Assembly (NCBI GenBank): GCA_045599485.1
Contig: JAZRWA010000019.1
Span: forward strand, 1 to 21,249
Reading direction: 5' to 3'
From: Clostridia bacterium
GTDB taxonomy: Bacteria; Bacillota; Clostridia; Christensenellales; Aristaeellaceae
DNA: 21,249 nt
Program-made: the position numbers and the translations under genes
In this document: one piece after another, positions 1,134 to 21,249 of the stretch
How positions within the stretch are numbered: the first letter of the stretch is position 1
Layout of the letters: every line of letters begins with the position of its first letter
Notes under the pieces: model-generated
Databases searched by the model: none
The model's input: the letters and a program-made list of their open reading frames with translations, nothing else
What the model was told of the DNA's origin: nothing

Positions 1134-2645
1134 ATGCGGACGGAGATCAGAAAGGCGCTTTAGCCGTTCAGAAGACGGCTGACGGCGGAAGCCTTGCTGC
1201 AGGCGGCGGCGGAAGCGTGCATGGCGACATGCGGCACAGCGGCGGTGATGTTTGCGCTGCGGCAGTATGATTTGATGGCTCCGACCCTGTTTTTTTGCCT
1301 GATCCCCCTGTTTTGGTTGGTGCTGGGCGGCTTCTTTTTTCTTCATCGACCGACCTGGGTGCGTACAGCGAGGCGCGTGGACCGTACCTATGAGCTGCAG
1401 GACCGGACGGCGACCATGGTACATCTGGCGCAGGATGAGGCGTTTTTTTCCGCTCTGCAGCGGCAGGATACCATTGAAAAGCTGAAGCGGCTGAATCCCA
1501 AGGCAATCAGACTGCGCTTTTCACGCCGGCGGTGGCTGGCCCTTCTGCTTTGTGTGACCCTTTCCGCCGCTGTGGCGGCAGGAGCCTTTCTTTCGGCGCA
1601 ATGGCTGCGCGGAGGCGAGACGGAATACATGGAATCGGACGAAATGAAACTGGCGCGTGCGCTGCTGCAGGATATGCGTGAGCGGCTGAATGACGCCGAT
1701 TTGTCCGAACAGGAAAGGGAAGCGTTGCTGCGGCAGATCGAAGAGACCGAAAACGCCCTGAATGGCGATAACTTTGGTTTGGACGAGCTGGCGGGCATTA
1801 CCCGAACAGTGGGCGAGCTGCAAAGCCGGCTGGATGAATCGCTGATCCGCCGCGGCTGGATCTATCTGCTGCGGGAGGAGCCGCATTATACCGCTGTGGC
1901 GGACGGCATGATCAATGAGGATATACCGGCCATGCAGGCAGCGCTGGCGGCCAACTATAATGAAGTGATGAGCAAGACGGGCACGGAAGCCATCATTGCC
2001 CTGATGGATCTGAAGACGGAGATCGATGAGGCGCTGGAGGCGGATAACGAGCCCGATGACGAGGACGCCTATCTGCAGTACGCGTTTTATCTGTTTGCTG
2101 ATGATATGCTGGGTGCCGCCAACCACATTGCCGCGCACAAAAACCCGGACAGTGTGATCTTTAACGCCTTTGCGCTGCTGGAAAAGCGCCTGATCAGCAT
2201 CATCAACGGTGTGGATATCATCGTGGAGGCGGATGAGAACGAACAAAACATCTATTTCCGCCAGGAGGACGGCGATGAGGGCAGTGAGGACGGCGGCGGC
2301 ATGAACGGGCGCGCCGCGGAGGAAGGGGACGCGGAGGACGGCAGCGTGCTGCTGTATACCGCCGACCCGGACGGCATGCACGGCGCGGGCACCGGCACCC
2401 GCAGCCAGCAGCACTATGAAGAAAGCGAAAAGGTGTATGAGCCGTCGCTGGATCCGTACAGCACCGCCTATGACGCAGCGCGGGAATATGAATTTGAATT
2501 GAACGGCATCGAGATCGAAAACAGCCATGTGGCGTACGGTCAGGTCTATGGGTCGTATTATGCCCGGATGATCGAAGCCATCATGGACGGCCGCATCCCG
2601 TAGGAGATGCTGCATTCGGTCGAGGCGTATTTCTTTGGACTGTAA
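1134..2645 (+). CDS. Membrane-anchored acidic protein, first gene of the MoxR/DUF58/VWA module (DUF4175-like from memory). It contains two in-frame TAG codons (1161-1163, 2601-2603). The standard-code ORF is 1194-2603.
   Basis: The track ORF 1194..2603 starts at a TTG. The ATG at 1134 is in the same frame and has a strong RBS (AGGAGG, 7-nt spacer). It is separated from the ORF only by the TAG at 1161. After the TAG at 2601 the frame stays open for 13 sense codons (EMLHSVEAYFFGL) to a TAA at 2643-2645. Hydrophobic segments are present (TLFFCLIPLFWLVLGGFFFL, WLALLLCVTLSAAVAAGAFL), followed by a long D/E-rich region. The outer boundaries depend on TAG being read through. A conservative start is ATG 1221 or TTG 1194. 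Confidence 0.55.
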
Positions 2646-2684
2646 GAAAAAACAGCCATTCGGACAGACGAAAGGGGAAAAACA

Positions 2685-3674
2685 ATGAATCAGGCGGAAA
2701 CGCTCCGGCGCTTCAGGGAGAAGAGCGGTCAGGTTTTTGAACAGATCAACCGGGATATGATCGGCCAGCAGGAAGTGGTGCAGCATGCGGTGATCGCGAT
2801 GATCACGGGCGGCAATGTGCTGCTGGAGGGCGTGCCCGGCGTGGGCAAAACGCGTTTGGTGCGCGCCATCGGCCGTGTCTTTGGCCTGCCGTTTTCGCGC
2901 ATTCAGTTTACGCCCGACCTGATGCCCTCCGATGTGACGGGTACCAACGTGATGACCCGCGATGAGAAGGGCAACACGGTGTACCGCTTCCAGCCGGGCC
3001 CCATCTTCAGCAACATTGTGCTGGCGGATGAGATCAACCGTGCCACGCCCAAAACACAGAGCGCGCTGCTGGAGGCCATGCAGGAGCATATGGTCTCGGT
3101 AGCCGGTGTGGATCACCGCCTGGAGGAACCCTTCTTTGTGCTGGCGACGCAGAACCCCGTGGAGCAGGAGGGCACGTATCCGCTGCCTGAAGCACAGATG
3201 GACCGGTTTATGTTCAAGCTGGTCGTCGGCTTCCCGACGGTGGAGGAGCTGGAAAAGATCGTATTGATGACGCAGCAGACGATGGAGGAGACTTCCGAGC
3301 AGGTGCTGGACGCCGAAACGCTGCTTCAGATGAGAGCGCTGGCCAAGCAGATTCCCGTGCTGCCGGAGCTTTTGACCTATACGATGCGGCTGGTCTCCGC
3401 TACCCATGAGGATTCGGCCGAAAAGGCGGAGGTGACCGGACAGTACATCGCGCTGGGCGCAAGCCCCCGCGCCTGCCAGGCATTGATCACAGCGGCCAAA
3501 GCGCGCGCGCTGATGGACGGCCGTTTCAATGTGTGCAAAGAGGACATCGATACCCTGGCGTACCCGGTGCTGCGCCACCGCATCAAGCTGAACTATGCGG
3601 CGATGGCGGAACGCAAGACGGCGGACATGCTGATCGCGGAGCTGATCCGCGAGGTGTCTGCCCGCAAACGCTGA
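2685..3674 (+). CDS. MoxR-family AAA+ ATPase
   Basis: 329-aa ORF. Walker A is LEGVPGVGKT and Walker B is VLADEINRA, with ATQNPVEQEGTYPLPEAQMDRF also present. RBS AAAGGGGA lies upstream of the ATG at 2685. TGA stop. Confidence 0.95.
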   Translation: MNQAETLRRFREKSGQVFEQINRDMIGQQEVVQHAVIAMITGGNVLLEGVPGVGKTRLVRAIGRVFGLPFSRIQFTPDLMPSDVTGTNVMTRDEKGNTVYRFQPGPIFSNIVLADEINRATPKTQSALLEAMQEHMVSVAGVDHRLEEPFFVLATQNPVEQEGTYPLPEAQMDRFMFKLVVGFPTVEELEKIVLMTQQTMEETSEQVLDAETLLQMRALAKQIPVLPELLTYTMRLVSATHEDSAEKAEVTGQYIALGASPRACQALITAAKARALMDGRFNVCKEDIDTLAYPVLRHRIKLNYAAMAERKTADMLIAELIREVSARKR

Positions 3675-3675
3675 A

Positions 3676-4581
3676 ATGGCGGCGGCAAGACGCAGGCAGC
3701 TGTTGGATGATGAGTTTCTGGCCACGCTGAACACGCTGAATCTGAGCGCGAGGATGCCCATCAACAACCGTTTTGCCGGTGTGCACCGCTCCAAGACCTA
3801 CGGCGGCATTTCCGAATTTGCGGACTACCGGGAATATCAGCCCGGCGATGATCTGCGGCGCATCGATTGGAATCTGGCCGGCCGTACGGGACAATACTAT
3901 ATCAAGCAGTTTCTGGATGAAAAAAAGCAGATGGTCCGCATCTTTCTGGATACCTCCCTTTCCATGCTGGGCGAGGCGGACAGCGATAAATCGCTTGCGG
4001 CTTTGCGCATGGCCGCGGCCATTGCGTATCTGGCGGTGCAGGCGATGGACAGCGTGTGCTTTTATGCCATGAACGGGTCAAGAAGCGTGCCGGTGGGGCC
4101 GGTGATCAACTGCAAGAGCCAATTGATCGCCACGTTTGCCGAACTGGAGCAGGTTGATTTTTGCGGAACCTGCGATATCGGGGCGGCCATTGCTGATCAG
4201 GGGCGCTTTGGCGGCGGCAGGGGGCTGACCGTCATTCTTTCCGACCTGCAGACCGATTCGGACTGGAAGGGCGCCATCCGTTCCCTGAAAGCCAAGGGAC
4301 AGGATGTCATGCTTATCTGCCTTTTGTCCAAGGGGGAGGAGCAGCCCGCCTATCGCGGGGCGCAGTCCCTGGCGGATGCCGAACTGCCCGAAACACAGCC
4401 ATTTCATGTGGAGGTGGACCGGGATATGCTGCACGCCTATGAAGAGGCGGTGCGATGGTTTTACCGGGATGTGGAAGCCTTCTGTGCCGGGGAGAATGTG
4501 GCGCTGGCCTGTGTCGGCGGCGGGGATGCGCCCGAGGAAGTGCTGCTGCAACGGGGCTTTATGACGGGGTTGATCAAATGA
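3676..4581 (+). CDS. DUF58 domain protein (usual MoxR partner)
   Basis: 301-aa ORF carrying the hallmark DYREYQPGDDLRRIDWN motif. The ATG lies 1 nt after the MoxR TGA. TGA stop. Confidence 0.9.
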   Translation: MAAARRRQLLDDEFLATLNTLNLSARMPINNRFAGVHRSKTYGGISEFADYREYQPGDDLRRIDWNLAGRTGQYYIKQFLDEKKQMVRIFLDTSLSMLGEADSDKSLAALRMAAAIAYLAVQAMDSVCFYAMNGSRSVPVGPVINCKSQLIATFAELEQVDFCGTCDIGAAIADQGRFGGGRGLTVILSDLQTDSDWKGAIRSLKAKGQDVMLICLLSKGEEQPAYRGAQSLADAELPETQPFHVEVDRDMLHAYEEAVRWFYRDVEAFCAGENVALACVGGGDAPEEVLLQRGFMTGLIK

Positions 4582-6416
4582 AGATACTGCATCCGGAATA
4601 CCTTTGGATGGCAGGCGGCCTGATATTGCTGGTCGTGCTGTGGATCCTGCGTCCGCAGCGGGAGAAAAAGGCCGTGTCATCCGTGTGGCTGTGGCGCCTG
4701 AGTGAAAGGTTTCACTCACGAAGGATGCCGCTGCACCGTATGAAAAAGATGCTGCAGTTGCTGCTGCAGCTTTTTGCCGTGTCCGCGGCGGTGCTGCTGG
4801 CCCTGCGCCCGGTATTTCGGGTGCCGGATGCAGGCAAGGAATACATAGCTGTGGTGGACGTTTCGGCCGGCATGGCGCTGAACGGACGTCTGGAAAAAGT
4901 GAAGGAGAGCCTGCTGAAAGACATTTCCTCCTGCGGCGCGGGAACGGAAGTGACCGTGATCGCGGCGGGCAGCGGCGCGGTGACGCTGCTGGAAAAGAGC
5001 ACCGACCGCAATGAGATCGAGTATGCTGTGACCCGCCTTCAGATTGATTGGGGCACCATGAATGTGCAGGCGGCGGCGGAGACCGTGCAGAGGATGCTGG
5101 ATCAAAGCCCCGAGGCGGAAATCGTGTGGTATACCGACCGGGCTTTGGAGAGCGATGAGATCGTTTTGCACCGGACGGGGGACGGAGACTGCTGGAACGC
5201 GGCGGTCAACCGGCTGTCCTGCTCACGGCAGGGCGTGACCACGACCTTTGAGGCGGAGATCATCAGCTATAATGCCGCCGCCGAACTGACCTGCGCGCTG
5301 TATCTGGATGAGCACATTGCCGGGGCACGGCAGGTCTTGCTGAAGGAAAATGAGCCGGCTGTGGTGGAATGGGAGATCAAAAATGCCTCCTTTTCCGCCG
5401 CAAGGGTGGTTTTTGCCGCGCAGGACGCCTTGCAGGAGGACAACGAGGCGCTGCTTGTGAGGCCCGCGGAGCACGCTGTCCGCGTACTGCTTTGCAGTGA
5501 TGAGCCGTTTTTCTGGCAGCAGGTGCTGCGTGCCTTTGACGTGGTGCAGCTGGAGGTGCGCGGCGCGGCGCAATGGGAAGATACCTTTGAAAATTACGAT
5601 ATTTATGTGTTTGACGGCGTATTGCCCAAAACGCTGCCAACGGACGGCGGTATCTGGATGATCCACCCCGACAGACTGCCGCGTGAGACCGGGCTGCTCT
5701 TTGGCGCATATCAGCAGGGCGGCTATCTGGAACTGCCCCGCGGCGGCATTCAGAGGCGGCTGCAGCTGGAAAACGCACTCATCAGCCGGGATATCATGGT
5801 GCAGAAGCTGCATCAGATCAACGATACCGAACGCTTTGAGATCGCGCTGACGGCAGGCGGACAGCCTGCGCTGCTGGCGATGCGGGAGAGCAACGGACTG
5901 GCCAGGGTGATCTTTTCCTTTGATCTGCATGATTCCAACCTGCCGCTGATGGGGGATTTTGTTTTGATCGTGGGGCAGCTGCTGGACTATACGATGCCGG
6001 AGCTGATGAGCGATACGACGGTGAACGCCGGCGAAGCGGTGAAGGCGGCGGTAACGCCCCTGGCGAAGGAGATCTATCTGAAGCTGCCGGACGGCACGCT
6101 GAAGGCCCTGCCCTTTACGGTGGACAGTGTGCAGTTTACGCCCGCATCGCCCGGGGTGCATACGCTGATGCAGCTGAAGGAAAACGGCATGCTGCAGTAT
6201 GCGGATTTTGTCTGCCGCATTCCGCCGTGCGAATCCGATCCGCGGGCAGGCGAGGTCCAGACGGTCAGCCTGGTGCGTGTGCCTTTTACGGAAGAAGAAA
6301 AAAACGCGCGGGCGGAGCAGACCGACCGCATGCGGGATATCGGAACGGAATTGGCGGCTGCGTTGCTGCTGCTGCTCTTGCTGGAATGGATGGTGTATTA
6401 TCATGAACAGTATTGA
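4578..6416 (+). CDS. BatA-like membrane protein: N-terminal double-TM domain, VWA-like domain with a degenerate MIDAS, and a C-terminal TM anchor
   Basis: The ATG at 4578 overlaps the DUF58 stop (ATGA), implying translational coupling. The track ORF start at 4455 lies inside DUF58 and is unlikely to be real. The N-terminus MKILHPEYLWMAGGLILLVVLWILRP...VWLWR resembles the Bat N-terminal two-TM domain. The MIDAS position reads VVDVSAGM instead of DxSxS. The C-terminal helix is LAAALLLLLLLEWMVYY. TGA stop. Confidence 0.75.
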   Translation: MKILHPEYLWMAGGLILLVVLWILRPQREKKAVSSVWLWRLSERFHSRRMPLHRMKKMLQLLLQLFAVSAAVLLALRPVFRVPDAGKEYIAVVDVSAGMALNGRLEKVKESLLKDISSCGAGTEVTVIAAGSGAVTLLEKSTDRNEIEYAVTRLQIDWGTMNVQAAAETVQRMLDQSPEAEIVWYTDRALESDEIVLHRTGDGDCWNAAVNRLSCSRQGVTTTFEAEIISYNAAAELTCALYLDEHIAGARQVLLKENEPAVVEWEIKNASFSAARVVFAAQDALQEDNEALLVRPAEHAVRVLLCSDEPFFWQQVLRAFDVVQLEVRGAAQWEDTFENYDIYVFDGVLPKTLPTDGGIWMIHPDRLPRETGLLFGAYQQGGYLELPRGGIQRRLQLENALISRDIMVQKLHQINDTERFEIALTAGGQPALLAMRESNGLARVIFSFDLHDSNLPLMGDFVLIVGQLLDYTMPELMSDTTVNAGEAVKAAVTPLAKEIYLKLPDGTLKALPFTVDSVQFTPASPGVHTLMQLKENGMLQYADFVCRIPPCESDPRAGEVQTVSLVRVPFTEEEKNARAEQTDRMRDIGTELAAALLLLLLLEWMVYYHEQY

Positions 6417-8934
6417 CGTGCGGTTTGAAACACCGCTTGCATTGCTGACGCTGATTCCGGCGGCGGTACTGCTGATACTGTCCCTGCGCCGCATTCCGAC
6501 GGCTCAATTGAGCAAAAAGGCCAGAAATACCCATTTGGGGCTTCGGCTTCTGGCGGTTTTGTGCGCGGTGCTGATCTTATCCGGCTTGTCTGTCAGCAGT
6601 GTGACCAACAAAACGGTGATGGCTCTGCTGCTGGATACCTCGGACAGCACGGCAGGGAGACGGGAGGAATTGCTTCAGGCGGCGGAGACCATTGAAGCCG
6701 CGGCGGACCGGAATACGCAGATCGTGCACATCGCCTTTGGCGGCAATGCGGTGCAGGTGAGCGCGTTTGAAAACGAAAACGGTGTGGAAACGGGCGCTAC
6801 GGACGCCGCGGGTGCGATGATCCTGGCGGCCAATGCCCTGGAGGGCAGCAGCCGCAAGCGCGTGGTTCTGCTGACAGACGGCGTGCTGACGGACGGTGAT
6901 GTGATTTCTGCCGCGGAGATGCTCGGCGGCAAGGGCATCCGTCTGGACGCGTATTATGCGGAATATCTGTCAGCAGAGCCGGAGGCGCAGGTCACGGCGG
7001 TAACGCTGCCCTCGGAGGCGGTGCTGGGGCAGAGCATGACATTGGATACGGTGGTGACGGCTAGCGGCTCCATCGGCGCCTCGCTGGAGGTATCCGACCG
7101 GGAGGGTCGCCTTTCGGTCAAACAGGTGCGGCTCTATAAGGGCGAAAACCGCTTTGCCCTGACCGCCCTGCCGAGATACGCCGGGACATCGGAGTTTTTT
7201 GTGAAGCTGACCCCCGAAAAGGATACGATACCCGGGAACAATGCCTACGGCGCGGTGACAGAGGTGACCTCACAGCAGAGGATTTTGCTGGTGGAGGGAC
7301 AAACGGGCAACGCCCGGGCGCTGCGGCAGCTGCTGGAGGAACACGAGTGCGATACTACGGTCCTCGGGGCGGCGGAGGTGCCGACGGACATGGAAGCATT
7401 GTGCCGCTACAGCCTGATCATCCTGCTGGATGTGGATGTGCTGGACCTGCCGCAGAAGGCACCGGCTCGCTTGCGGGAGTATGTGGAAACCTATGGGCGC
7501 AGCCTGCTGGCCGCCGGCGGCGAGCATACTTTTTTGTACGGAAACATGAAGGATACGGCACTGGAAACCATCCTGCCGGTCAGCATGGAGGTGAGCCGCA
7601 GCGAGAGCGCGGAGCCGGCGGTTTTGCTGTTTTTGCTGGATAATTCCGCTTCCATGGAGGGCACCCCGATCACCATGGCCAAGCGCGGTCTGATCAACGC
7701 GATCCAGTCGCTGAATGACAATGATTTTGCGGGCGTGATCGCCTTTTCCACGGAGTCTTCGGTGGTATCGCCCATCATTTCCATGGAAAACCGCGATGGC
7801 CTGATCAACTCGGTGGCGCGTTTGGGCACGGTGATGGGTACGCAGTACAACCCGGCACTGCTGGATGCCGAAAAACTGCTGGAGCAATATGAGGGCAGCG
7901 GCAAAAAGCACATCATTTTGCTCAGCGACGGTAACCCGAGCGATACGGGGTATGAAGAGATCGTGGTGAGGCTGGCGGAAAAGGGCGTGACCCTTTCCAC
8001 CATCGCGATGGGCGCGGACATCCGGGACGACGTGATGGCCATGCTGGCAACGCTGGGCGGCGGAAAATTCTATCGTGTGGAAAGCTCCTATGATCTGCCG
8101 TCCATTGTACTGACCGATACGGTGGCTTCCCAGACGGAGCACCTGGTCAGGGGCAGCGTGACGCCGGAAACGGTCAGCCCGCGCTATGGTATTTCCGACC
8201 CTCTGCCGCCGCTGGGCGGGTATATCCGTACCGATGCCAAGGCAGGAGCCGAGGTGCTGCTGACGGTGGAAAAGAACGATCCTTTGTTTGTGCGGCAGAG
8301 CTTTGGCAGCGGCCGTACGGCGTGCTTTACCGCCGACCTGAGCGGACAATGGACCGACATGTGGTTCAGGGATGATCCTGCCCGTGCCACGCTGGTACGG
8401 CTGATCGAGGAACTGCAGCCCACGGCGTATACGGCAGCGGCGCGGGAGATCCGTCTGGAAGCGGGCGGCACCCAGAGCATTCTGACCGCTCGGGCGGCGG
8501 AAGGCGCCGCTTCGGCGAAGGCGGAGGTGACTGCTCCGGACGGACGTGTCATGACACAAGACCTTTTTATGAATGAAGAATGCTGGACAGCGGAGATCCC
8601 GACCCCCGAAACGGGACGGTATGAACTGCTGATCCATGATTATGACGCCGCGGGAATGCTGCTGCGGACCCGCAGCGCGGCGGAGTATGTATCCTATTCG
8701 CGGGAGTACGATGCCTTTCCCGATACGGTCGCGGCCAGGGAGCAGCTGCAGGAGATCTGCTTTATGACCGGCGGCATGATGACCACGGATGCGGCGCTGC
8801 TTTCCAAAGTGGAGCTGGCAGGACTGCCGGTGGAGCGCGATGTGCGTTCCCTGTTGGCGGGGGCGGCTTTCTTTCTGCTGCTGATGGACCTGACCCTGCG
8901 AAAGCTTCGACCGAAATTTTTGTATCGCCGCTGA
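6403..8934 (+). CDS. Membrane protein with two von Willebrand factor A domains flanking a GATase1-like domain; N-terminal BatA-type double TM and a C-terminal TM
   Basis: The ATG at 6403 overlaps the previous gene by 14 nt. The track start at 6199 lies inside the upstream gene. N-terminus: MNSIDVRFETPLALLTLIPAAVLLILSLRR. MIDAS 1 is LLLDTSDST...LLTDG and MIDAS 2 is FLLDNSASMEG...ILLSDGNPSD. C-terminal helix: AGAAFFLLLMDL. TGA stop. Confidence 0.85.
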   Translation: MNSIDVRFETPLALLTLIPAAVLLILSLRRIPTAQLSKKARNTHLGLRLLAVLCAVLILSGLSVSSVTNKTVMALLLDTSDSTAGRREELLQAAETIEAAADRNTQIVHIAFGGNAVQVSAFENENGVETGATDAAGAMILAANALEGSSRKRVVLLTDGVLTDGDVISAAEMLGGKGIRLDAYYAEYLSAEPEAQVTAVTLPSEAVLGQSMTLDTVVTASGSIGASLEVSDREGRLSVKQVRLYKGENRFALTALPRYAGTSEFFVKLTPEKDTIPGNNAYGAVTEVTSQQRILLVEGQTGNARALRQLLEEHECDTTVLGAAEVPTDMEALCRYSLIILLDVDVLDLPQKAPARLREYVETYGRSLLAAGGEHTFLYGNMKDTALETILPVSMEVSRSESAEPAVLLFLLDNSASMEGTPITMAKRGLINAIQSLNDNDFAGVIAFSTESSVVSPIISMENRDGLINSVARLGTVMGTQYNPALLDAEKLLEQYEGSGKKHIILLSDGNPSDTGYEEIVVRLAEKGVTLSTIAMGADIRDDVMAMLATLGGGKFYRVESSYDLPSIVLTDTVASQTEHLVRGSVTPETVSPRYGISDPLPPLGGYIRTDAKAGAEVLLTVEKNDPLFVRQSFGSGRTACFTADLSGQWTDMWFRDDPARATLVRLIEELQPTAYTAAAREIRLEAGGTQSILTARAAEGAASAKAEVTAPDGRVMTQDLFMNEECWTAEIPTPETGRYELLIHDYDAAGMLLRTRSAAEYVSYSREYDAFPDTVAAREQLQEICFMTGGMMTTDAALLSKVELAGLPVERDVRSLLAGAAFFLLLMDLTLRKLRPKFLYRR

Positions 8935-8942
8935 GGGGACTG

Positions 8943-8951
8943 TGCTATAAT
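8943..8951 (+). promoter_or_regulatory. Possible extended -10 promoter element (TGcTATAAT) ahead of the DUF1648/SDR pair
   Basis: TATAAT at 8946-8951 with TG at 8943-8944, about 35 nt upstream of the GTG start. No good -35 element is seen. Confidence 0.3.
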
Positions 8952-8984
8952 GCCTTGTGAAACAACCGCAAGGAGGGATCGGCC

Positions 8985-9497
8985 GTGAAGAGGGAACGAA
9001 AGCCCTATATTACCGAAGGGCATCTGCTGCTGGAGAGGATTGCTTACCTGCTGCTGCTTGGCGCGTTTGCGGTATGCGTGGAGAAGGCGATCATATCCCC
9101 GGGAACGATCGCCACGCACTTTGATTTGTACGGTCAGCCGGATGGATACGGCTCCCCGTGGGTGATGCTGATCCTGCCGGCGGTCATGCTGGCGGTGAAC
9201 GGACTGATCAGTGTGCTGATCCGCAGGGTTCCGCCTGAAAAGATGAACATGCCCTTTGAACTGAAGCGGGAAAACACCGATAAGGTCATGACCGCGTTCA
9301 CCGGGATGCTGTTTGTGATGGAGGCGGAAATGGCCGTTTTCGCCTTTGCGGAAACGCTCCTTTGGGCCAACGGAAGAAGCAGCCTCTGGAATGCTGTATT
9401 GCTGACGGCGGCGATGCTGCTGACGACGGTGCTGGGCACCGTTCGCGCAGTCAGGGCAAACAAAGCTTCGCAGAGGGAGGAGAGCCATGGAGTTTGA
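8985..9497 (+). CDS. DUF1648-type integral membrane protein
   Basis: GTG start with RBS AAGGAGGG at 8970-8977. The motif IATHFDLYGQPDGYGSPW after the first TM helix matches my recollection of the DUF1648 signature. About four hydrophobic helices. TGA stop. Confidence 0.7.
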   Translation: MKRERKPYITEGHLLLERIAYLLLLGAFAVCVEKAIISPGTIATHFDLYGQPDGYGSPWVMLILPAVMLAVNGLISVLIRRVPPEKMNMPFELKRENTDKVMTAFTGMLFVMEAEMAVFAFAETLLWANGRSSLWNAVLLTAAMLLTTVLGTVRAVRANKASQREESHGV

Positions 9498-10197
9498 AGG
9501 CAAGATTGCCGTTGTGACCGGCGGCGCGCACGGCATCGGACAGGCTGTTGCACAGGAATTCAAACGGCTTGGCGCGACGGTGCATGTGATCGACATCGAT
9601 CGGGGAGCGCATTATGAGGGCGATATCAGCCGTAAAGAAGTGCTGGAGGCCTTTGCCGCGGACGTGATCGAAAAGCACGGGCATGTGGATTATCTGGTGA
9701 ACAATGCAAAGCCGCTGATGAAGGGCCTGGACGAGTGCAGCTGGGAGGAGTTTCAATACGCGTTGTCCGTTGGCGTGACGGCACCGTTTTATCTGACAAA
9801 ACTGCTGGTACCGTATTTTGCGCCGGGGGCGGCGGTGGTCAACATCTCTTCCTCCCGGGATCGCATGAGTCAGCCGCAGACGGAAAGCTATACAGCGGCC
9901 AAAGGCGGCATTGCCTCGCTGACGCATGCGCTGGCGGTCAGCCTGAGCGGCAAGGTGCGGGTCAATTCGATCTCGCCGGGCTGGATCGACACGGATTATA
10001 CCGTCTATGACGGACCGGATGCCTCGCAGCAGCCTGCGGGACGCGTGGGAAACCCGATGGACATTGCTCACATGGTGATGTTCCTCTGTTCGGAGAAGGC
10101 GGGCTTTATCACCGGCGAAAACATCTGCGTTGACGGCGGCATGACGAAGCTGATGATCTATCATAACGATTGCGGCTGGAAGCTGGAGCAGGAATAA
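9487..10197 (+). CDS. Short-chain dehydrogenase/reductase (SDR) family oxidoreductase
   Basis: Cofactor motif VTGGAHGIG, NNA motif, catalytic S...YTAAKGG (YxxxK), and ISPGWIDT. It overlaps the upstream gene by 11 nt. TAA stop. Confidence 0.9.
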   Translation: MEFEGKIAVVTGGAHGIGQAVAQEFKRLGATVHVIDIDRGAHYEGDISRKEVLEAFAADVIEKHGHVDYLVNNAKPLMKGLDECSWEEFQYALSVGVTAPFYLTKLLVPYFAPGAAVVNISSSRDRMSQPQTESYTAAKGGIASLTHALAVSLSGKVRVNSISPGWIDTDYTVYDGPDASQQPAGRVGNPMDIAHMVMFLCSEKAGFITGENICVDGGMTKLMIYHNDCGWKLEQE

Positions 10198-10217
10198 AGT
10201 CTTGAACAAATCAATCC

Positions 10218-10255
10218 CCCATGTGCGGATCACATGATCGGCACATGGGTTTTTT
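10218..10255 (+). terminator. Rho-independent terminator after the SDR gene
   Basis: CCCATGTGC (10218-10226) pairs with GCACATGGG (10241-10249). An inner GATC/GATC extension lengthens the stem. A T6 run follows at 10250-10255. Confidence 0.75.
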
Positions 10256-10351
10256 CAGTTTAAAAAGGCATCCGGTCTCAGAATATTGCGAAACAGGAAA
10301 GAAATGGATATAATAAAGATACAGAACAGACCTTTGGAAGGAGCAATATCC

Positions 10352-11485
10352 ATGAAATTGATCCATATTGCCGATCTGCATCTGGGCAAACAGATAGGAG
10401 ACCGACTGATTCTGGAAGAACAGGAAGCGGTGCTGCAGCAGATCATCAGCATTGCGAAGGATGAAAAAGCCGACGGCGTGCTGATCGCGGGGGACGTATA
10501 TCAGCGTTCTGCCCCGCAGGCGGAAGCCATGACGGTGTTTGATCGCTTTGTGTCGCAGATCGTGGAGCTTGGGAAAAAGGTGTTCATCATCAGCGGCAAC
10601 CATGACTCGGCACAGCGTATCTCCTATTTCTCAGCGCTGGTCAGAAATGCCGGGGTGTATGTGACGGAAACGTTTGATGGTCATCTGCAGCATGTGACGC
10701 TCAAGGACAGGGACGGCGAGCTGAATGTGTGGCTGATGCCGTTTTTGCGCCCGACACAGGTGAAGCGGCTGCTGCCGGAGGCAAAGATCGTCAGCTATCA
10801 GGACGCTGTCGCGGCGGTGCTGGAGGCCACAGAGATCGATTTTTCCAAGCGAAATGTGCTATTGTGTCATCAGTTCATCAGCGGCTGCGAGACGACCGGC
10901 GATGAAGAAAAGGCCGTCGGCGGTCTGGACCAGATCGACGGACGGGTGCTGGACGGATTTGACTATGTGGCATTGGGACATATCCACGGACCGCAGCGCG
11001 TGCTGCGGGAAACGATGCGCTATGCCGGCTCGCCGCTGAAGTATTCATTCTCCGAGGCGCGGCATAAAAAATCGGTCACGGTGGTTGAACTGCAGGAAAA
11101 GGGAGAGGTCAGGGTGAAGACTGTTCCCCTCTATCCGCTGCACGATGTGAGACTGGTGGAGGGAATGCTGGCGGATGTGATGAAAATGGACTATTCCGAT
11201 GATTTTGTGTGGGTCACCATCCATGACGAGCTGCCGCCCCCTGATGCCAAGGTGAGCATTACCAATGTGTTCCCCAACATGCTCAAGTTTTCGGTCGTCA
11301 ACAGCCGAACCAAGTATGATATGGATGTGCAGGCACTGCATGCGATGGAAAACAAACAGGCCATCGAGCTGTTCTGCGACTTCTATCGCCTGCAGAACAA
11401 TGATCAGCTGCCCAATGAAACACAGATGAAGATCCTTGAAAAAATCACCCGGGAACTGGAGATGAAGCCCGATGAAACCCTGTAA
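10352..11485 (+). CDS. sbcD: Exonuclease SbcD (Mre11-family nuclease subunit)
   Basis: ATG at 10352 with RBS GGAAGGAG and an 8-nt spacer. The track start at 10286 has no RBS. Metallophosphoesterase motifs are present: IHIADLHLG, AGDVYQR, SGNHD, LGHIHG. TAA stop. Confidence 0.9.
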   Translation: MKLIHIADLHLGKQIGDRLILEEQEAVLQQIISIAKDEKADGVLIAGDVYQRSAPQAEAMTVFDRFVSQIVELGKKVFIISGNHDSAQRISYFSALVRNAGVYVTETFDGHLQHVTLKDRDGELNVWLMPFLRPTQVKRLLPEAKIVSYQDAVAAVLEATEIDFSKRNVLLCHQFISGCETTGDEEKAVGGLDQIDGRVLDGFDYVALGHIHGPQRVLRETMRYAGSPLKYSFSEARHKKSVTVVELQEKGEVRVKTVPLYPLHDVRLVEGMLADVMKMDYSDDFVWVTIHDELPPPDAKVSITNVFPNMLKFSVVNSRTKYDMDVQALHAMENKQAIELFCDFYRLQNNDQLPNETQMKILEKITRELEMKPDETL

Positions 11486-14102
11486 GCTGGTCATGTCGGC
11501 CTTTGGCCCTTATGCCGGAAGGACGGAGATCGATTTTACCCTGTTGGGCGAAAACGGGCTGTTTTTGATCGCCGGCGATACGGGCGCGGGAAAAACAACG
11601 ATTTTTGACGCCATGAGCTTCGCCCAGTACGGCGAGGCGGCGGGCGGCAAAGAGAGAAGAAAAAGCAAATCCTTCCGTTCGGATTATGCCTCTCCCACAA
11701 CGGAGACCTGGGTGGATTTTACCTTTACGCACCGGGGAGAAACATGGCGCATCAAGCGCAGCCCGGAATATACCCGCCCCAAAAAGTCCGGCGAGGGCAT
11801 GACAACGCAGCCCGCTGAAGCCGAGATGGAGTGCGCCGAAACGGGAGAGAGTTACTATGGCCTCGGCGACGTCAACCGTCAGGCACAGGAACTGATCGGC
11901 CTGACGCAGGATCAGTTTACGCAGACGGTCATGATCGCGCAGGGGGATTTTCTCAAGATCCTCAACGCCGATTCCAAGGATCGCAAGGCGCTGTTTCAGA
12001 AGCTGTTCAATACGGAAATGTATGACAGGATCCGTGAGAAGCTGAAGGACATGGAACGTGAATGCAATGACGAGCGGGCGGATCTGGAAAAGCGGATCGA
12101 GGTGGCACAGGGGAAGATCGTACCCGATGCGGATTTTGCCGAAAGAGAGCTGCTGCAGCTGTATTGCACGGAGCCCAAATATGCAGCGCTGCTGCTGGAA
12201 GTGCTGGGACGCCAGATCGAACAGGAAAAGCAGGGGAAAAAGAAAGCTTCGGATGAAAAGGATCACGCGCTTCAGTGCCTGAATGAGGCCCTTGTGAGGC
12301 AGGAAGCGGGAAAAAGTCTGAACAGGCGGTTTGAAGAACAGGCCGCCTGCAGAGAAGAACTGAACCACCTGACGGCACAGCGGGAAGACGTGGAAGAGAA
12401 AAAACAGCGGCTGTAGATCGCGCGCAGGGCATAGAAACTGGTGCCCGCCGCCGCCCTGCTGAAGCGGACGGAGGAGCAGCTGGAAACGCAGCGGCGTCAG
12501 CTGGAAACATAGCTGCAGCGGCAGAAACAGGCGGCGGAAGCACTGAAGCCGGCGGAGGACCGCCTGCAGGAAGCGCTCAGCCATCAGGAGGAAGCAGCGG
12601 AGCTGCAGCAGAAGGCCAGACAGCTGAAGGAAACGGTGCCCGTGCTGAAGGAATTGACCGCAAAACTGCGTGAGCAGCAGCTGCTTCAGAAAAAGGTATC
12701 GGAGCTGACGGAGAAGAGCACGGCGGCGGATCGGGCGTATACCGCTGCAAAGGAGCAGTATTATCTGAGCCAGGCGGGACTGCTGGCGGCTGAACTGCGT
12801 GCGGGCAAGCCCTGCCCTGTGTGCGGCGCGGTGGAGCATCCGGCACCGGCGGCGCTTTCTTCGGCCGCGGTGACCGCCGAACAGCTGGATGCCGCGGATC
12901 AGAACCGCCGTCAGGCGGAAAAAGCGCTGCAGGATACGAACAACGCGCTGACGGAGATCAAGGGAAAAATCGACGCGGCCCGCGAAAAGCTGACGCAGCT
13001 GCATATTGCTGAGGAGGAAACGGAGCGCACCGTGCAGCAGAAGGCGCGTGCAGCGGAGGCTCAGGCGAAGGCGTATCTGGATGACATCGAAACGAGCCGC
13101 GAAGCGGTGGAGCAGACCAGGGAGCAGCAGTCGAAGAGCGCCGGCGCGGCAGAGAAGCTGCGGCAGGGTCTTGAGGAGCTGGAGAAGCAGCGGACAGAAC
13201 AGCAAAGCGGCTTTGAGGCTGGACTGCGGACATGCGGCTTTGAGAATGCCCGGGCGTTTGAAATGGCGAGGATGCCCGAAAACGAGATGGGCCGCATGGA
13301 GAAGGCGGTGCGGGAATACGGTGAACAGCTGCGTTCCCAGTCCGACCGCGCGGAAAGGCTGGCGGCGGAGCTGAAGGACAAGCAGCCTGCCGATCTGGAT
13401 AGCCTGCAGAAGCTGTGCGACGACCTTCAAAAAGCACACAAGGCCGCGGAATCGGCCGAACAAGCGTATGATAAGAAGCTTGTGATGCATGAGGACGCGC
13501 GCAAGGAGATTGAAAAAGCCCTCAAACAGCGCGAACGCCGTCAGAATCACTGGGCGGCGGTGCATGACCTGTATACCTGCTGCGCCGGTCAGACAGCAGG
13601 CAGCCGCAGGGCGAAGCTGACCTTTGAGGCCTATGTGCAGCAGTACTATTTCAAGCAGGTGGTGACGGCGGCCAATCTGCGCCTGAAGGTGCTGACGGAC
13701 GGCATGTTCCACCTGCGCTGCAAGGAGGAAGCCGAGGACCGTGTGCATCAGAGCGGCCTGGACCTGGATGTGCATGACAGCAGCACGGGGCAGTGGCGTG
13801 ATGTTTCGACCCTGTCGGGCGGTGAATCCTTCCTGGCAAGCCTGGCGCTGGCACTGGGGCTTTCCGATGTGGTGCAGGGACAGAGCGGTGCCATCCGCAT
13901 GGAAGCCATGTTTATTGATGAGGGCTTTGGCACGCTGGATGATAACGCGCTGCGCAATTCCCTCCGTGTGCTGGATGATCTGGCGGACGGCAAGCGTCTG
14001 GTGGGCATCATCAGCCATGTGCATGAACTGGAAGAGAAGATCGACAAACAGATCGTCGTCAGCAAGACACCCGGCGGCTCGAAGGTTACCGTGGTGGTGT
14101 GA
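11472..14102 (+). CDS. sbcC: Exonuclease SbcC (Rad50/SMC-like ATPase), one reading frame interrupted by three in-frame TAG codons (12414-12416, 12432-12434, 12510-12512). It is either recoded/suppressed or a pseudogene.
   Basis: Track ORFs 11472..12416 and 12636..14102 share a frame (both starts are divisible by 3). The 219-nt gap translates as continuous coiled coil with no TGA, no TAA and no indel. N-terminal Walker A is IAGDTGAGKTT. The zinc hook CPVC is at 12813-12824. The ABC signature is LSGGESF, Walker B is MFIDEGFGTLD, and the H-loop is ISHV. The ATG overlaps the sbcD end by 14 nt. TGA stop. Confidence 0.8.
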
Positions 14103-15928: not shown

Positions 15929-17305
15929 TCAAATCATTTGCTCGGGGTGGAAGACCTCGTCAAAGCGTTCGGGCGTGAGGTAGCCGAGGGCCACACAGGC
16001 CTCCTTGAGGGAGATGTTTTCGACATACGCCTTCTTGGCGGTGCGGGCGGCGTTCTCATAGCCGATATAGGGGTTGAGCGCGGTGACCAGCATGAGCGAG
16101 TTGTGCAGGTTATCGTGCATCTTCTTCTTGTTTGCGGTGATGCCCGAAACGCAATTTTTATTGAAGGAAACGATGGCATCGCTCATCAGACGGGCGGACT
16201 GCAGGAAATTGTAGATCATGACGGGCATGAACACATTGAGCTCAAAATTGCCCTGAGAGGCGGCAAAACCAACAGCGGCATCATTGCCCATGACCTGCAC
16301 GGCGACCATGGTGACGGCTTCGCACTGGGTGGGGTTGACTTTGCCGGGCATGATGGAGGAGCCGGGCTCGTTTTCGGGAATGTGGATCTCGCCCAGACCA
16401 AGCCGCGGACCGGAAGCCAGCCAGCGGATATCGTTGGCGATCTTCATCATGTCGCAGGCGAGTGCCTTGATAGCGCCGTGGGCAAAGACCAGCTCATCCT
16501 TGCTGGTGAGGGCATGGAATTTGTTGGGAGCGGTGATGAACGCCTTGCCGGTGAGGGCGGAAAGCTCCTCGGCGACCGCTTCGCCAAAGCCCTTGGGAGC
16601 GTTGAGCCCCGTGCCGACCGCCGTGCCGCCCAGTGCCAGCTCACAGAGGGGCGGGATGGAACGGCGAAGCAGCTCCGCATCCCGTTCGAGGGAGCTGCGC
16701 CAGCCGCTGATCTCCTGGCTGAAGGCGATGGGCGTGGCATCCTGCAGGTGCGTACGGCCCGATTTGACGATGCCGGCGTTTTCCTCCTCCAGACGGCGGA
16801 AGGTGGCGACCAGTTCGTTAACGGCGGGGAGGAGGCGATCCTCCAGCATCAGAACAGCGCTGATGTGCATGGCGGTGGGGAAGGTATCGTTGGAGGACTG
16901 GGACATGTTGGCGTCATCATTGGGGTGCAGCAGGGGCTTGCCCGCCAGCTGATTGCCGCGGCCGGCAATGACCTCATTGACGTTCATGTTGGACTGCGTG
17001 CCGCTGCCCGTCTGGAATACCACAAGGGGGAATTCCTTGGCCAGCAGGCCGGCGGTGATCTCGTCGCAAACACGGCAAATAATGGCGCATTTTTCATCGG
17101 TCATGCGCCCCGGAACAAGCCGGTTGTTGGCCAGGGAGGCGGCCTTTTTGAGCAGGCCGAAGGCGTGTATGATTTCTTCCGGCATGGTTTCGGGGCCCAC
17201 GCCGATCAAAAAGTTTTCATGGCTGCGCTGGGTCTGGGCACCCCACAGGCGTGTGGCGGGAACACGGACCTCGCCCATGGAGTCATGCTCGATACGGAAT
17301 TCCAT
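15929..17305 (-). CDS. fumC: Class II fumarate hydratase
   Basis: 458-aa ORF starting MEFRIEHDSMGEVRVPATRLWGAQTQRS and containing the fumarate lyase signature GSSIMPGKVNPTQCEA. RBS GGAGGT (rc of 17315-17320). TGA stop. Confidence 0.97.
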   Translation of the reverse strand: MEFRIEHDSMGEVRVPATRLWGAQTQRSHENFLIGVGPETMPEEIIHAFGLLKKAASLANNRLVPGRMTDEKCAIICRVCDEITAGLLAKEFPLVVFQTGSGTQSNMNVNEVIAGRGNQLAGKPLLHPNDDANMSQSSNDTFPTAMHISAVLMLEDRLLPAVNELVATFRRLEEENAGIVKSGRTHLQDATPIAFSQEISGWRSSLERDAELLRRSIPPLCELALGGTAVGTGLNAPKGFGEAVAEELSALTGKAFITAPNKFHALTSKDELVFAHGAIKALACDMMKIANDIRWLASGPRLGLGEIHIPENEPGSSIMPGKVNPTQCEAVTMVAVQVMGNDAAVGFAASQGNFELNVFMPVMIYNFLQSARLMSDAIVSFNKNCVSGITANKKKMHDNLHNSLMLVTALNPYIGYENAARTAKKAYVENISLKEACVALGYLTPERFDEVFHPEQMI

Positions 17306-18563: not shown

Positions 18564-19862
18564 ATGAAAGCCCGTGAATTTATCGATTTTGTCCGTTGCT
18601 CCCCCACTCCCTTTCAGGCGGTGGAAGCGCTTTCCAAAGCCTTTGACGCAAAAGGCTTTAAAGAATTGAAGGAAAATGTGCCCTTTCAGGTCAAGGCGGG
18701 CGGCAAGTATTATGTGACCCGCAACCGCTCGGCGGTGATCGCCTTCACGGTGCCCGAAGGGGCTTGCGGCAGCTTCCAGATCACGGCGGCGCACAGCGAC
18801 AGCCCGACCTTCAAACTCAAGCCTGTGTTTGAACAGACGGTGGGGGACAAGTACGTGCGCTTCAATATCGAACCCTACGGCGGAACGATCATGTCCACGT
18901 GGTTTGACCGTCCGCTTTCCGTGGCCGGCCGTGTGATGGTGCGTACCGAAAACGGCGTGAAGACCGAAATGGTGGATATCGACCGTGATGCCGTACTCAT
19001 CCCCAACATGCCCATCCACTTCAACCGTGAGGTGAACAGCGGCTACAGCTACAATCCGCAGGTCGACCTGCTGCCCCTGTACGGCGATGGTTCCGCCAAG
19101 GGCGGTCTGATGCGCGAGCTGGCGGAAAAATGCGGCTGCAGGGAGGAGGATATCCTCGGCACCGATCTGTTCCTGTACAGCCGTACGCCGGGCAGCGTCT
19201 GGGGCGCCAAGGATGAGTTTTTCTCCTGCGGACGCATCGATGACCTGGAGTGCGCGTGGACGGCGGCGGAAGCGCTGATGAACGCGAAGACCGAAGGGCA
19301 CATCAATGTCTGCGCGGTGCTTGATAATGAAGAGGTGGGCAGCACCAGCAAGCAGGGTGCTGATTCAACCTTCCTCTATGATGTGCTGTACCGTGCGGCC
19401 TGCGCGCTGGGCTATGATGATGAGCACATTCGTGCCATGATGGCCGCCGGCTTTATGCTTTCCGCCGACAACGCCCACGCGGTGCACCCCAATCACGGTG
19501 AAAAATTTGACGCCGATAACCGTGTTTATATGAACGGCGGCGTAGTCATCAAGGCCAACGCCAATCAGAAATACACCACCGATGGTGTTTCCGCGGCGGT
19601 GTTCTCCGAGATCTGCCGCCGGGCGGGTGTGCCGGTGCAGTATTTTGCCAACCGTTCCGACGTACGCGGCGGCAGCACACTGGGCAATATTTCCAACGCG
19701 CATCTTTCCATGAATACCGCTGATATCGGTCTGGCCCAGCTGGCCATGCACAGCTGCTGCGAAACGGCCGGCACAAAGGACGTGGAATACATGATCGAAG
19801 CGGTCCGCGCCTTCTATGAGACCGACATTGTTATGCAGAAGGACGGCACCTACAGCTTCTGA
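18564..19862 (+). CDS. M18-family aminopeptidase (aspartyl aminopeptidase-like)
   Basis: ATG at 18564 is preceded by GGAGG (18551-18555) with an 8-nt spacer. The track start at 18549 would include the RBS. Motifs: FIDFVRCSPTPFQAV, AAHSDSPTFKLKP, LDNEEVGS, SADNAHAVHPN. TGA stop. Confidence 0.85.
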   Translation: MKAREFIDFVRCSPTPFQAVEALSKAFDAKGFKELKENVPFQVKAGGKYYVTRNRSAVIAFTVPEGACGSFQITAAHSDSPTFKLKPVFEQTVGDKYVRFNIEPYGGTIMSTWFDRPLSVAGRVMVRTENGVKTEMVDIDRDAVLIPNMPIHFNREVNSGYSYNPQVDLLPLYGDGSAKGGLMRELAEKCGCREEDILGTDLFLYSRTPGSVWGAKDEFFSCGRIDDLECAWTAAEALMNAKTEGHINVCAVLDNEEVGSTSKQGADSTFLYDVLYRAACALGYDDEHIRAMMAAGFMLSADNAHAVHPNHGEKFDADNRVYMNGGVVIKANANQKYTTDGVSAAVFSEICRRAGVPVQYFANRSDVRGGSTLGNISNAHLSMNTADIGLAQLAMHSCCETAGTKDVEYMIEAVRAFYETDIVMQKDGTYSF

Positions 19863-19905
19863 ATCGCAAAAAGTTGTTAATAGAATCATCCGAGAACGAT
19901 TTGAT

Positions 19906-19970
19906 AATCAGCCGTGAAGGGGTGTTCTTTCCTGAAATGAAGGGAAAACGGCACTTTTTTACGGCTGATT
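19906..19970 (+). terminator. Putative terminator region after the aminopeptidase gene
   Basis: The outer 10-bp stem AATCAGCCGT (19906-19915) pairs with ACGGCTGATT (19961-19970). It encloses an imperfect inner hairpin that ends in a T6 run (19955-19960). This is not a canonical compact terminator. Confidence 0.35.
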
Positions 19971-19983
19971 TTATGAATTGCAA

Positions 19984-20012
19984 TTGACTTAGAATTGTAA
20001 CATATATAAAAT
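19984..20012 (+). promoter_or_regulatory. Sigma-A promoter of pckA within an AT-rich island
   Basis: TTGACT at 19984-19989, a 17-nt spacer, and TAAAAT at 20007-20012. A leader of about 145 nt follows, then GAAGGAGG and the ATG at 20164. Confidence 0.55.
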
Positions 20013-20163
20013 TATATATAATAATATTCCATATTAGAATTTTACATTCCGTGCGGATTGCAATAAGATTTATTCGGTGAGAGTTGTTTTGAACGGACCT
20101 CACCGAAACGTTATAGCTACACGGCGTCCCAGAGGACGTGCGCGTTAAGAAGGAGGATATATC

Positions 20164-21249
20164 ATGAATCCGTGCTGCATCGAAAAGTATGGTATCGCCG
20201 GCGTAAAAGAGATTGTTTACAATCCCTCTTACGAAGAACTCTTCGCCGAAGAGACCAAGGCCGAACTGGAGGGTTATGAGGTTGGCAAGGTCAGCGAGCT
20301 GGGGGCCGTCAATGTCATGACCGGCATCTACACCGGCCGCTCCCCCAAGGATAAATATATCGTCATGGACGAAAACTCCAAGGACACCGTGTGGTGGACC
20401 ACTCCCGAATACAAGAACGACAACCACCCCATGAGCGGTGAGGTCTGGCAGACCGTCAAGGACCTGGCCCTCAAGGAACTGGGCAACAAGCGCCTGTTTG
20501 TCGTGGATGCCTTCTGCGGCGCCAACAAGGATACCCGCATGGCCATCCGCTTTATCATGGAAGTGGCCTGGCAGGCTCATTTCGTCAAGAACATGTTCAT
20601 CATCCCCACCGAGGAAGAGCTCAAGGACTTCGAGCCCGACTTTGTGGTCTACAACGCTTCCAAGGCCAAGGTGGAAAATTATCAGGAGCTGGGCCTCAAC
20701 AGCGAGACCTGCGTGGCCTTCAACATCACCAGCCGTGAGCAGGTGATCATCAACACCTGGTACGGCGGCGAGATGAAGAAGGGCATGTTCTCCATGATGA
20801 ACTACTACCTGCCGCTCAAGGGCATTGCCTCCATGCACTGCTCCGCCAACACCGATATGAACGGCGAAAACACCGCCATCTTCTTCGGTCTGTCCGGTAC
20901 CGGCAAGACCACCCTGTCCACCGATCCCAAGCGTCTGCTGATCGGCGATGACGAGCACGGCTGGGATGATAACGGCGTGTTCAACTTCGAGGGCGGCTGC
21001 TATGCCAAGGTCATCAACCTGGATAAGGAATCCGAGCCCGATATCTACAACGCCATCCGCCGCACCGCGCTGCTGGAGAACGTGACCCTGGATGAGAACG
21101 GCAAGATCGACTTCGCCGACAAGAGCGTCACGGAGAACACCCGTGTTTCCTACCCCATCGATCATATTGCAAACATTGTTCGCCCCGTGTCTTCCGCTCC
21201 TGCAGCAAAGAACGTCATCTTCCTCTCTGCTGACGCATTCGGCGTTCTT
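20164..21249 (+). CDS. pckA: Phosphoenolpyruvate carboxykinase (ATP); the N-terminal 362 codons, running off the window end
   Basis: Absent from the ORF track because it is open at the window edge. RBS AAGGAGG precedes the ATG at 20164. The translation starts [30 protein letters not shown], continues ...[15 protein letters not shown]..., and contains the kinase P-loop [13 protein letters not shown] and LIGDDEHGW. The track ORF 19831..21165 (-) is its antisense shadow. Confidence 0.93.

Follow-up and report, generated by a model that had tools for sequence, protein, structure and literature searches.

The question raised by this locus is whether UAG, elsewhere a stop codon, is translated on the chromosome of a gut bacterium. 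The window, that is the whole stretch of 21,249 nucleotides (nt) analyzed here (Clostridia bacterium, contig JAZRWA010000019.1; genome W), is a piece of bacterial chromosome with a guanine plus cytosine (G+C) content of ~58%. An original prediction, made from the letters of the window, had listed TAG codons inside two genes at 1161, 2601, 12414, 12432 and 12510, and had proposed that UAG is read as sense. All five were confirmed to be in frame, the first two in an unnamed gene that heads a MoxR operon (gene 1), the others in sbcC. With the comparative data given below, translation of UAG in some form was judged very probable for the lineage formed by W and three related genomes (A, B and C), and it is likely that UAG is an ordinary, lineage-wide sense codon wherever it is present in this narrow lineage of gut Clostridia.

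In-frame TAG codons in four genomes

Gene 1 formed a single 90% cluster among 5.8 billion proteins, and the members of this cluster led to the three relatives: A (Logan SRR27361835; loci L001 and L089), B (the metagenome-assembled genome (MAG) from horse faeces GCA_024404275.1, 'Clostridia bacterium isolate Horse_feces223'; L002, L003 and L005) and C (ENA ERZ27247129; L006 and L088). DNA identity was ~95% among A, B and C, and 84-90% between each of these and W. The lineage sequence compared amounted to ~75 kb from the four genomes, covering one syntenic region of ~40 kb with ~31 gene families. Eighty MoxR loci (L008-L087) and the contig L090 (GCA_054286065.1, JAZTFX010000012.1) were used as outgroups.

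Among the orthologues of W, A, B and C, in-frame stops were found at 11 distinct sites (16 occurrences) in six genes, namely gene 1, the double-VWA gene, znuC, sbcD, sbcC and fumC, which belong to different operons and lie on both strands (Table 1). The stop was TAG at all 11 sites; there were no TGA codons, no TAA codons and no frameshifts. Three sites recurred: codon 490 of gene 1 in all four genomes, codon 697 of the VWA gene in A and B, and codon 43 of fumC in A and C. Some of this sharing was between genomes with differences at ~30% of synonymous sites. The corresponding operon genes of the 80 outgroup loci (MoxR, DUF58, BatA and VWA) served as a control and had 0 in-frame stops in ~117,000 aligned codons. 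At znuC codon 89, GAG was changed to TAG in A after its split from B, so that acquisition of TAG is ongoing.

The window by itself is not distinguishable from chance, and significance comes only with the comparative data. The window genes are rich in GAG, CAG and AAG, and 56-64% of single-base nonsense mutations in them would give TAG; five stops of five being TAG in the window alone had P ~0.08. At ~60% expected, 11 of 11 had P ~0.004. None of the other complete window genes ended at TAG (P ~0.07-0.14), which terminates 8.5-13% of open reading frames (ORFs) in related Clostridia. The statistical intuition of the original prediction, drawn from the window alone, was therefore too optimistic, and its observation that no gene stops at TAG was true of the window but a weak argument, since TAG terminators are rare in relatives too. 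Over the ~31 lineage gene families no genuine TAG terminator was found (P ~0.02-0.06 at the same baseline). Three apparent ones, in gene 1, B znuC and B sbcD, all continued into homologous or conserved sequence. Read-through of B znuC restored the strand after the H-loop, and the TAG of B sbcD was followed by PDETL and then TAA, a tail identical in W. The sbcD and sbcC genes overlap by 14 nt in different frames (window 11472-11485), and conservation of PDETL is not independent evidence of read-through, because this tail also encodes the SbcC start.

Gene 1 belongs to a family of fast-evolving, unannotated membrane proteins always encoded upstream of MoxR-DUF58-BatA-VWA operons; the shared motifs are 'RPT...A.R.D..L.L.ER..TM' and a C-terminal 'E[ML]..IIE.YF'. 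Orthologues were present at L001, L003 and L088, and distant homologues upstream of MoxR in 35 outgroup loci. In the window, ATG 1134 is preceded at a distance of 7 nt by a strong ribosome-binding site (GGAGGTGA), and codons 1-29 had 5-6 synonymous and 3-4 nonsynonymous differences from relatives A and B. The NCBI annotation places the start downstream and gives a product of 460 amino acids (aa). At the other end, the frame reaches TAA (2643-2645) through TAG, as had been predicted. The outgroup homologues end at about the same point with the C-terminus '...G..[LI][PS]-[DE]-E[ML]..IIE.YF..L-stop', which the window sequence GRIP-TAG-EMLHSVEAYFFGL-TAA matches residue for residue. Because the tail aligns with this conserved family motif, TAG 2601 is an internal codon and not a terminator. 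Between A and B the tail had 3 synonymous and 0 nonsynonymous changes.

Synonymous and nonsynonymous differences (Nei-Gojobori) were also counted around other TAGs. For fumC, W vs. C, codons 1-42 had 12 synonymous and 0 nonsynonymous differences, codons 44-68 (ahead of the next Met) had 9 and 2, and the ratio of nonsynonymous to synonymous differences per site (pN/pS) over the entire part after the TAG (codons 44-458) was 0.06. For the VWA gene, A vs. B, with the TAG in both genomes, pN/pS was 0.21 downstream and 0.16 upstream, and the 11 codons from the TAG to the next start had 3 synonymous and 0 nonsynonymous differences. For znuC, A vs. B, pN/pS was 0.25 after and 0.23 before the TAG of A, and for sbcC beyond codon 660, W vs. 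C, it was 0.16. When read through, SbcC of W has 876 aa (homologues, 875-879 aa), and the invariant columns of the CPVC zinc hook, the LSGGE signature, Walker B and the H-loop are kept in the part that follows the three TAGs. Constraint past the TAGs thus equals that ahead of them. In all six genes UAG was flanked on either side by sequence homologous to a single protein, and sites persisted in diverged genomes with the coding sequence beyond them still under purifying selection; both are expected of a lineage-wide reassignment.

No shared sequence motif was found around the TAG sites, and no preferred base after them (T at 0/11 sites, P ~0.17). The 100 nt after the 11 sites likewise held no shared hairpin or element like the pyrrolysine insertion sequence (PYLIS), with folding z-scores from -1.7 to +1.9; the absence of such a hairpin had been noted for the five window sites, and was borne out. 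Decoding of UAG is context-independent. Nor was a phage or mobile-element context found: the genes belong to the chromosome, serve metabolism and repair, and stand in conserved synteny.

Two explanations that leave UAG a stop codon were weighed against these results. In the first, UAG would mainly be a stop read by release factor 1 (RF1), and a leaky suppressor tRNA or context-dependent read-through would make scattered nonsense codons tolerable. TAG is indeed rare (~0.08% of codons), the majority of sites occur in one genome only, and the lack of TAG terminators carries little statistical weight. However, the TAG of gene 1 codon 490 has been retained across a synonymous divergence of ~0.3, that of fumC codon 43 stands in two genomes at pN/pS 0.04-0.06, and, if read-through were partial, the losses of product at the three TAGs of sbcC would compound one another. 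Together with the lack of a shared context or structure and 0 TAG terminators in ~31 families, these results make this explanation improbable.

In the second, also raised in the original prediction, the standard code would apply, and the TAGs would be nonsense mutations, marking pseudogenes or split genes, or else faults of sequencing or assembly; this is favored by the unremarkable 5/5 of the window, where ~60% of random nonsense mutations are TAG, and by the downstream NCBI start of gene 1, yet it is rejected as extremely improbable because constraint, conserved motifs and homology persist past the TAGs. The selection is undiminished even between two TAG-bearing genomes, and none of the marks of pseudogenes was seen (relaxed constraint, mixed stops and frameshifts, no conservation across strains). 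Base-call error is excluded, because identical positions recur in independent assemblies from different samples and assembly pipelines. Split genes with re-initiation were considered separately; a 42-aa FumC fragment and an SbcC coiled coil interrupted three times are implausible, and the codons from TAG to the next start are also constrained. The claim that UAG is read as sense thus gained strong support from TAGs in six genes of four independent assemblies, from shared sites, from selection past the TAGs and from the family motif after TAG 2601.

The residue at UAG

At the 9 TAG sites with a comparable nearest relative, the residue in that relative was Glu at 6, and Gln, Lys and Arg at 1 each. 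Among the family columns, four were acidic: gene 1 codon 490 (35 outgroup homologues; D14, E10, G3, P3, A2, Q2, S1), sbcC codon 660 (D18, E7, N1, G1), sbcC codon 315 (n = 27; D13, A5, T4, N2, S2, V1) and znuC codon 89, a Glu after the Q-loop that is likewise Glu in EttA. The column at sbcC codon 347 was A in 23/27 and that at codon 321 was Q in 26/27; the columns at fumC codon 43 and VWA codon 697 were too variable to indicate a residue. Summed BLOSUM62 log-odds were E 38.5, Q 22.7, D 16.1 and K 10.9, favoring Glu over Gln by ~8 bits.

From codon usage and mutation, new TAGs would be expected to derive from GAG in 13-25% and from CAG in 23-49% of cases, and the excess of Glu partners over this expectation had P 0.0003-0.01. 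The numbers of exchanges to be expected between W and its relatives were derived from exchange rates at four-fold degenerate sites, as a rough neutral estimate. Synonymy of TAG with GAG predicts ~10-19 GAG<->TAG differences, against 5 Glu<->TAG pairs observed (2-4 fold below); synonymy with CAG predicts ~23-45 CAG<->TAG differences, against 1 observed (~20-45 fold below). Given that UAG is translated, these comparisons point to glutamate as the most likely residue, with slightly better than even confidence.

A reading in which UAG has no single canonical meaning was considered unlikely. It would involve genome-wide pyrrolysine (Pyl) or, after loss of RF1, ambiguous reading by near-cognate tRNAs or by a partly amidated Glu-tRNA(CUA). 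The residues found at TAG sites are mixed (E, Q, K, R and perhaps a hydrophobic residue at znuC codon 205), and Gln-tRNA in most Clostridia is made by transamidating Glu-tRNA, which could blur Glu and Gln. Both forms have precedents: archaea with TAG = Pyl throughout the genome have been documented (10.1101/2024.09.30.615893), and in RF1-free E. coli UAG is read by near-cognate suppression (PMC6207430). Against this, the conserved acidic positions (znuC codon 89; sbcC codon 660, D or E in 25/27; gene 1 codon 490, D or E in 24/35) would tolerate the bulky Pyl or a random mixture poorly, and a surplus of Glu partners would not be foreseen at positions open to every residue. Known bacterial Pyl is confined to a few methyltransferases and one serine dehydratase (10.1101/2024.09.30.615893). 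The genes with TAG are unrelated to methylamine metabolism; neither such a link nor a PYLIS-like element is strictly required for a state like archaeal Code 34.

Glutamine, which the original prediction took as its first guess, appears quite unlikely as the residue if UAG is translated, and the specific proposal that UAG is Gln as in phage genetic code 15, by a tRNA-Gln(CUA), is improbable. The best case for it is sbcC codon 321, TAG in W, CAG in B and Gln in nearly all homologues; Gln was also second in log-odds, CAG to TAG is one transition, and reassignment of UAG elsewhere usually yields Gln (PMC8629427). Nevertheless, Gln came up only once among the 9 comparisons with a nearest relative and once among 6 family columns, and the deficit of CAG<->TAG differences, the four acidic columns and the log-odds all favor Glu over it. 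An alignment of SbcC and Bat-module orthologues, which had been proposed as a check, spoke for Gln at sbcC codon 321 only.

Besides the rarity of TAG, several points weigh against UAG as a lineage-wide codon for Glu. The Gln column at sbcC codon 321 conflicts with Glu, and some ABC ATPases have a hydrophobic residue at the position of znuC codon 205. The missing TAG terminators are only marginally significant, relatives using TAG for 8-13% of stops. A weakly efficient suppressor may act beside RF1. 'Genome-wide' is an extrapolation from the ~31 gene families of one ~40-kb region. Finally, we infer the decoder tRNA and the state of RF1; tRNA and Rfam scans of the window and the lineage loci found no tRNA gene, and neither prfA (the RF1 gene) nor the pyl genes lie in the ~75 kb of lineage sequence. 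With these points included, it is possible, at a little under even, that these free-living gut Clostridia use a fourth bacterial code in which UAG is Glu and UAA and UGA terminate through release factor 2 (RF2).

Neighboring genes and sampling of the lineage

The stop codons that the original prediction gave for the remaining complete genes were as stated (ORF check and Pfam). TGA ends MoxR, DUF58, the BatA-like gene, the double-VWA gene, DUF1648, sbcC, fumC, the flavin reductase, the gene of the 182-aa protein and M18; TAA ends SDR, sbcD, Fe-ADH and a 444-aa gene that had been absent from the earlier list, as well as gene 1 when TAG is sense.

Table 1. Window genes and in-frame TAG sites of the lineage (window coordinates; positions in relatives in the last column).
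Feature	Position	Strand	Details
DctP-type binding protein		minus	incomplete, runs off left window end
Five-gene operon			gene 1 (no Pfam family), MoxR, DUF58, BatA/VWA gene, double-VWA gene (Pfam)
Gene 1	1134..2645	+	heads the MoxR/DUF58/BatA/VWA operon; membrane protein, no Pfam family; 503 aa with TAG as sense
Gene 1 codon 10	1161..1163	+	TAG in W only; A and B GAG (Glu)
Gene 1 codon 490	2601..2603	+	TAG in W, A, B, C (L001, L003, L088); no sense-codon relative
Gene 1 tail, EMLHSVEAYFFGL + TAA	2604..2645	+	13 codons; true C-terminus
VWA codon 697	8491..8493	+	TAG in A (L001 15807) and B (L002 1375); W CGG (Arg)
DUF1648, SDR, sbcD, sbcC			next along window (Pfam)
sbcD codon 394 (also numbered 382)	11465..11467	+	TAG in B (L002 6075); W AAG (Lys)
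sbcC	11472..14102	+	SMC/Rad50-type ATPase; TAG at codons 315, 321, 347; stop TGA
sbcC codon 315	12414..12416	+	TAG in W; B GAA (Glu)
sbcC codon 321	12432..12434	+	TAG in W; B CAG (Gln)
sbcC codon 347	12510..12512	+	TAG in W; B GAG (Glu)
sbcC codon 660	13449..13451	+	TAG in C (L006 738-740); W GAA (Glu)
Fe-ADH, fumC (minus strand), flavin reductase, 182-aa protein, M18 aminopeptidase			further right (Pfam)
fumC codon 43	17177..17179	minus	TAG in C (L006 4434) and A (L089 672); W GAA (Glu)
444-aa gene	19831-21165	minus	no Pfam family; stop TAA; absent from earlier list
znuC codon 89			TAG in A; B GAG (Glu)
znuC codon 205			TAG in B; no comparable relative

Between the SDR and sbcD orthologues, B has a 1.7-kb insertion (L002 3128-4819, minus strand; window counterpart ~10198-10285) that the window lacks; its product of 563 aa matches the FMN_bind domain weakly. 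Synteny is lost beyond M18, where the 444-aa gene of the window stands opposite a PEPCK_ATP gene in B (L005 3134-3519), and a plus-strand gene at the contig end in A (L089 3659-3829) and C (L006 7423-7800).

The lineage is rare, narrow and seldom sampled. Its nearest SbcC, M18 and MoxR homologues outside have just 60-77% protein identity. A gene 1 scan of JGI metagenomes found no extra members, and a MoxR scan of the same metagenomes found relatives at 63-68% identity only, which served as outgroups. A single contig was matched in a scan of GTDB genomes, and neither sbcD nor the gene 1 product called by NCBI had a hit in exact look-ups. L093 added no TAG site. Two sets of loci were set aside. 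L004, with an M18 match, is unrelated (39% G+C, ordinary TAG stops); its M18 aminopeptidase (2538-4358, 606 aa) has an internal tandem duplication of ~170 residues, either real or an assembly artefact. L091 and L092, with the 57-aa protein P0123 placed in the gene 1 cluster, carry a chorismate synthase fragment across several frames, probably from an intron-bearing eukaryotic gene, and the clustering was an artefact.

Mechanism and comparison with known codes

UAG would be decoded by a tRNA with anticodon CUA, which a single change at position 36 could derive from tRNA-Glu(CUC). RF1 would have disappeared or no longer recognize UAG, and termination would be left to RF2 on UGA and UAA, the sole terminators observed in the lineage. 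The reassignment looks young, because TAG makes up ~1% of Glu-type codons (in W, 5 TAG vs. 495 GAG plus GAA) and most sites are specific to a single genome. The low use of TAG terminators in related Clostridia fits a codon-capture route.

On the outgroup contig L090, 0 of 16 genes end at TAG; such scarcity of TAG stops already among the closest relatives with the standard code would be consistent with a codon that vanished first and was captured later.

In the literature on codon reassignment and the pyrrolysine code, no report of a chromosome-wide UAG sense code in a bacterium was found, and no paper was found to mention the accessions of the lineage genomes. The known bacterial reassignments all concern UGA (PMC8629427); three codes are known in bacteria, where TAG is a stop apart from a few Pyl enzymes (10.1101/2024.09.30.615893). 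The lineage very probably reads UAG as an amino acid, a change not described so far for a bacterial chromosome. If UAG is Glu here, this would be the first stop-to-Glu reassignment in a prokaryote. Translation of UAG on a bacterial chromosome, whatever the residue, would call for a new code table. RF1-dependent termination would then be dispensable in a high-G+C genome of normal size showing no reduction, and a young codon capture could be observed while its TAG sites are few, mainly lineage-specific and exchanging mostly with Glu codons. A natural tRNA-CUA with its synthetase would be of interest to genetic code expansion. For annotation, table 11 fragments roughly 1 in 4 genes of these genomes (gene 1, fumC, VWA, znuC and sbcC are already fragmented by NCBI or public gene callers), and such mis-annotation distorts protein databases, pseudogene counts and estimates of MAG quality.

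Gut phages with code 15 (TAG = Gln; Lak and crAss-like phages) resemble the lineage in that TAG has passed from stop to sense, is scattered without context and is found in the animal gut. In the lineage, by contrast, the genes are chromosomal housekeeping genes (fumC, sbcCD, znuC, the MoxR operon), the residue points to Glu and TAG is far rarer. Archaeal Code 34 (TAG = Pyl) likewise places TAG inside ordinary prokaryotic genes with TAA and TGA as terminators, is hardly visible by coding density, and has a variable number of TAGs that suggests a recent switch (10.1101/2024.09.30.615893). That code is archaeal and pyl-dependent, whereas the lineage is bacterial and has TAG at conserved acidic columns, which argue for a canonical acidic residue.

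In the UGA codes 4 (Mycoplasmatales, some endosymbionts, Eggerthellaceae) and 25 (Gracilibacteria/Absconditabacteria), a stop codon was also captured in monophyletic bacteria, with the matching release factor presumably lost; those cases concern UGA and RF2 in AT-rich, reduced genomes, and the present one would concern UAG and RF1 at ~58% G+C. The nuclear codes of peritrich ciliates and Blastocrithidia read UAR (UAA and UAG) as Glu (NCBI tables 30 and 31). They would share UAG = Glu with the lineage, but are eukaryotic and have changed UAA too, which still terminates here.

The architecture proposed for the lineage would match that of the RF1-deleted, amber-free E. coli C321.deltaA and its successors (PMC11903333, PMC6207430): UAG terminators are absent, RF2 ends translation at UAA and UGA, and a tRNA-CUA can take over UAG. 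That strain was engineered, whereas the lineage would be its natural, young counterpart, already repopulating its genes with UAG.

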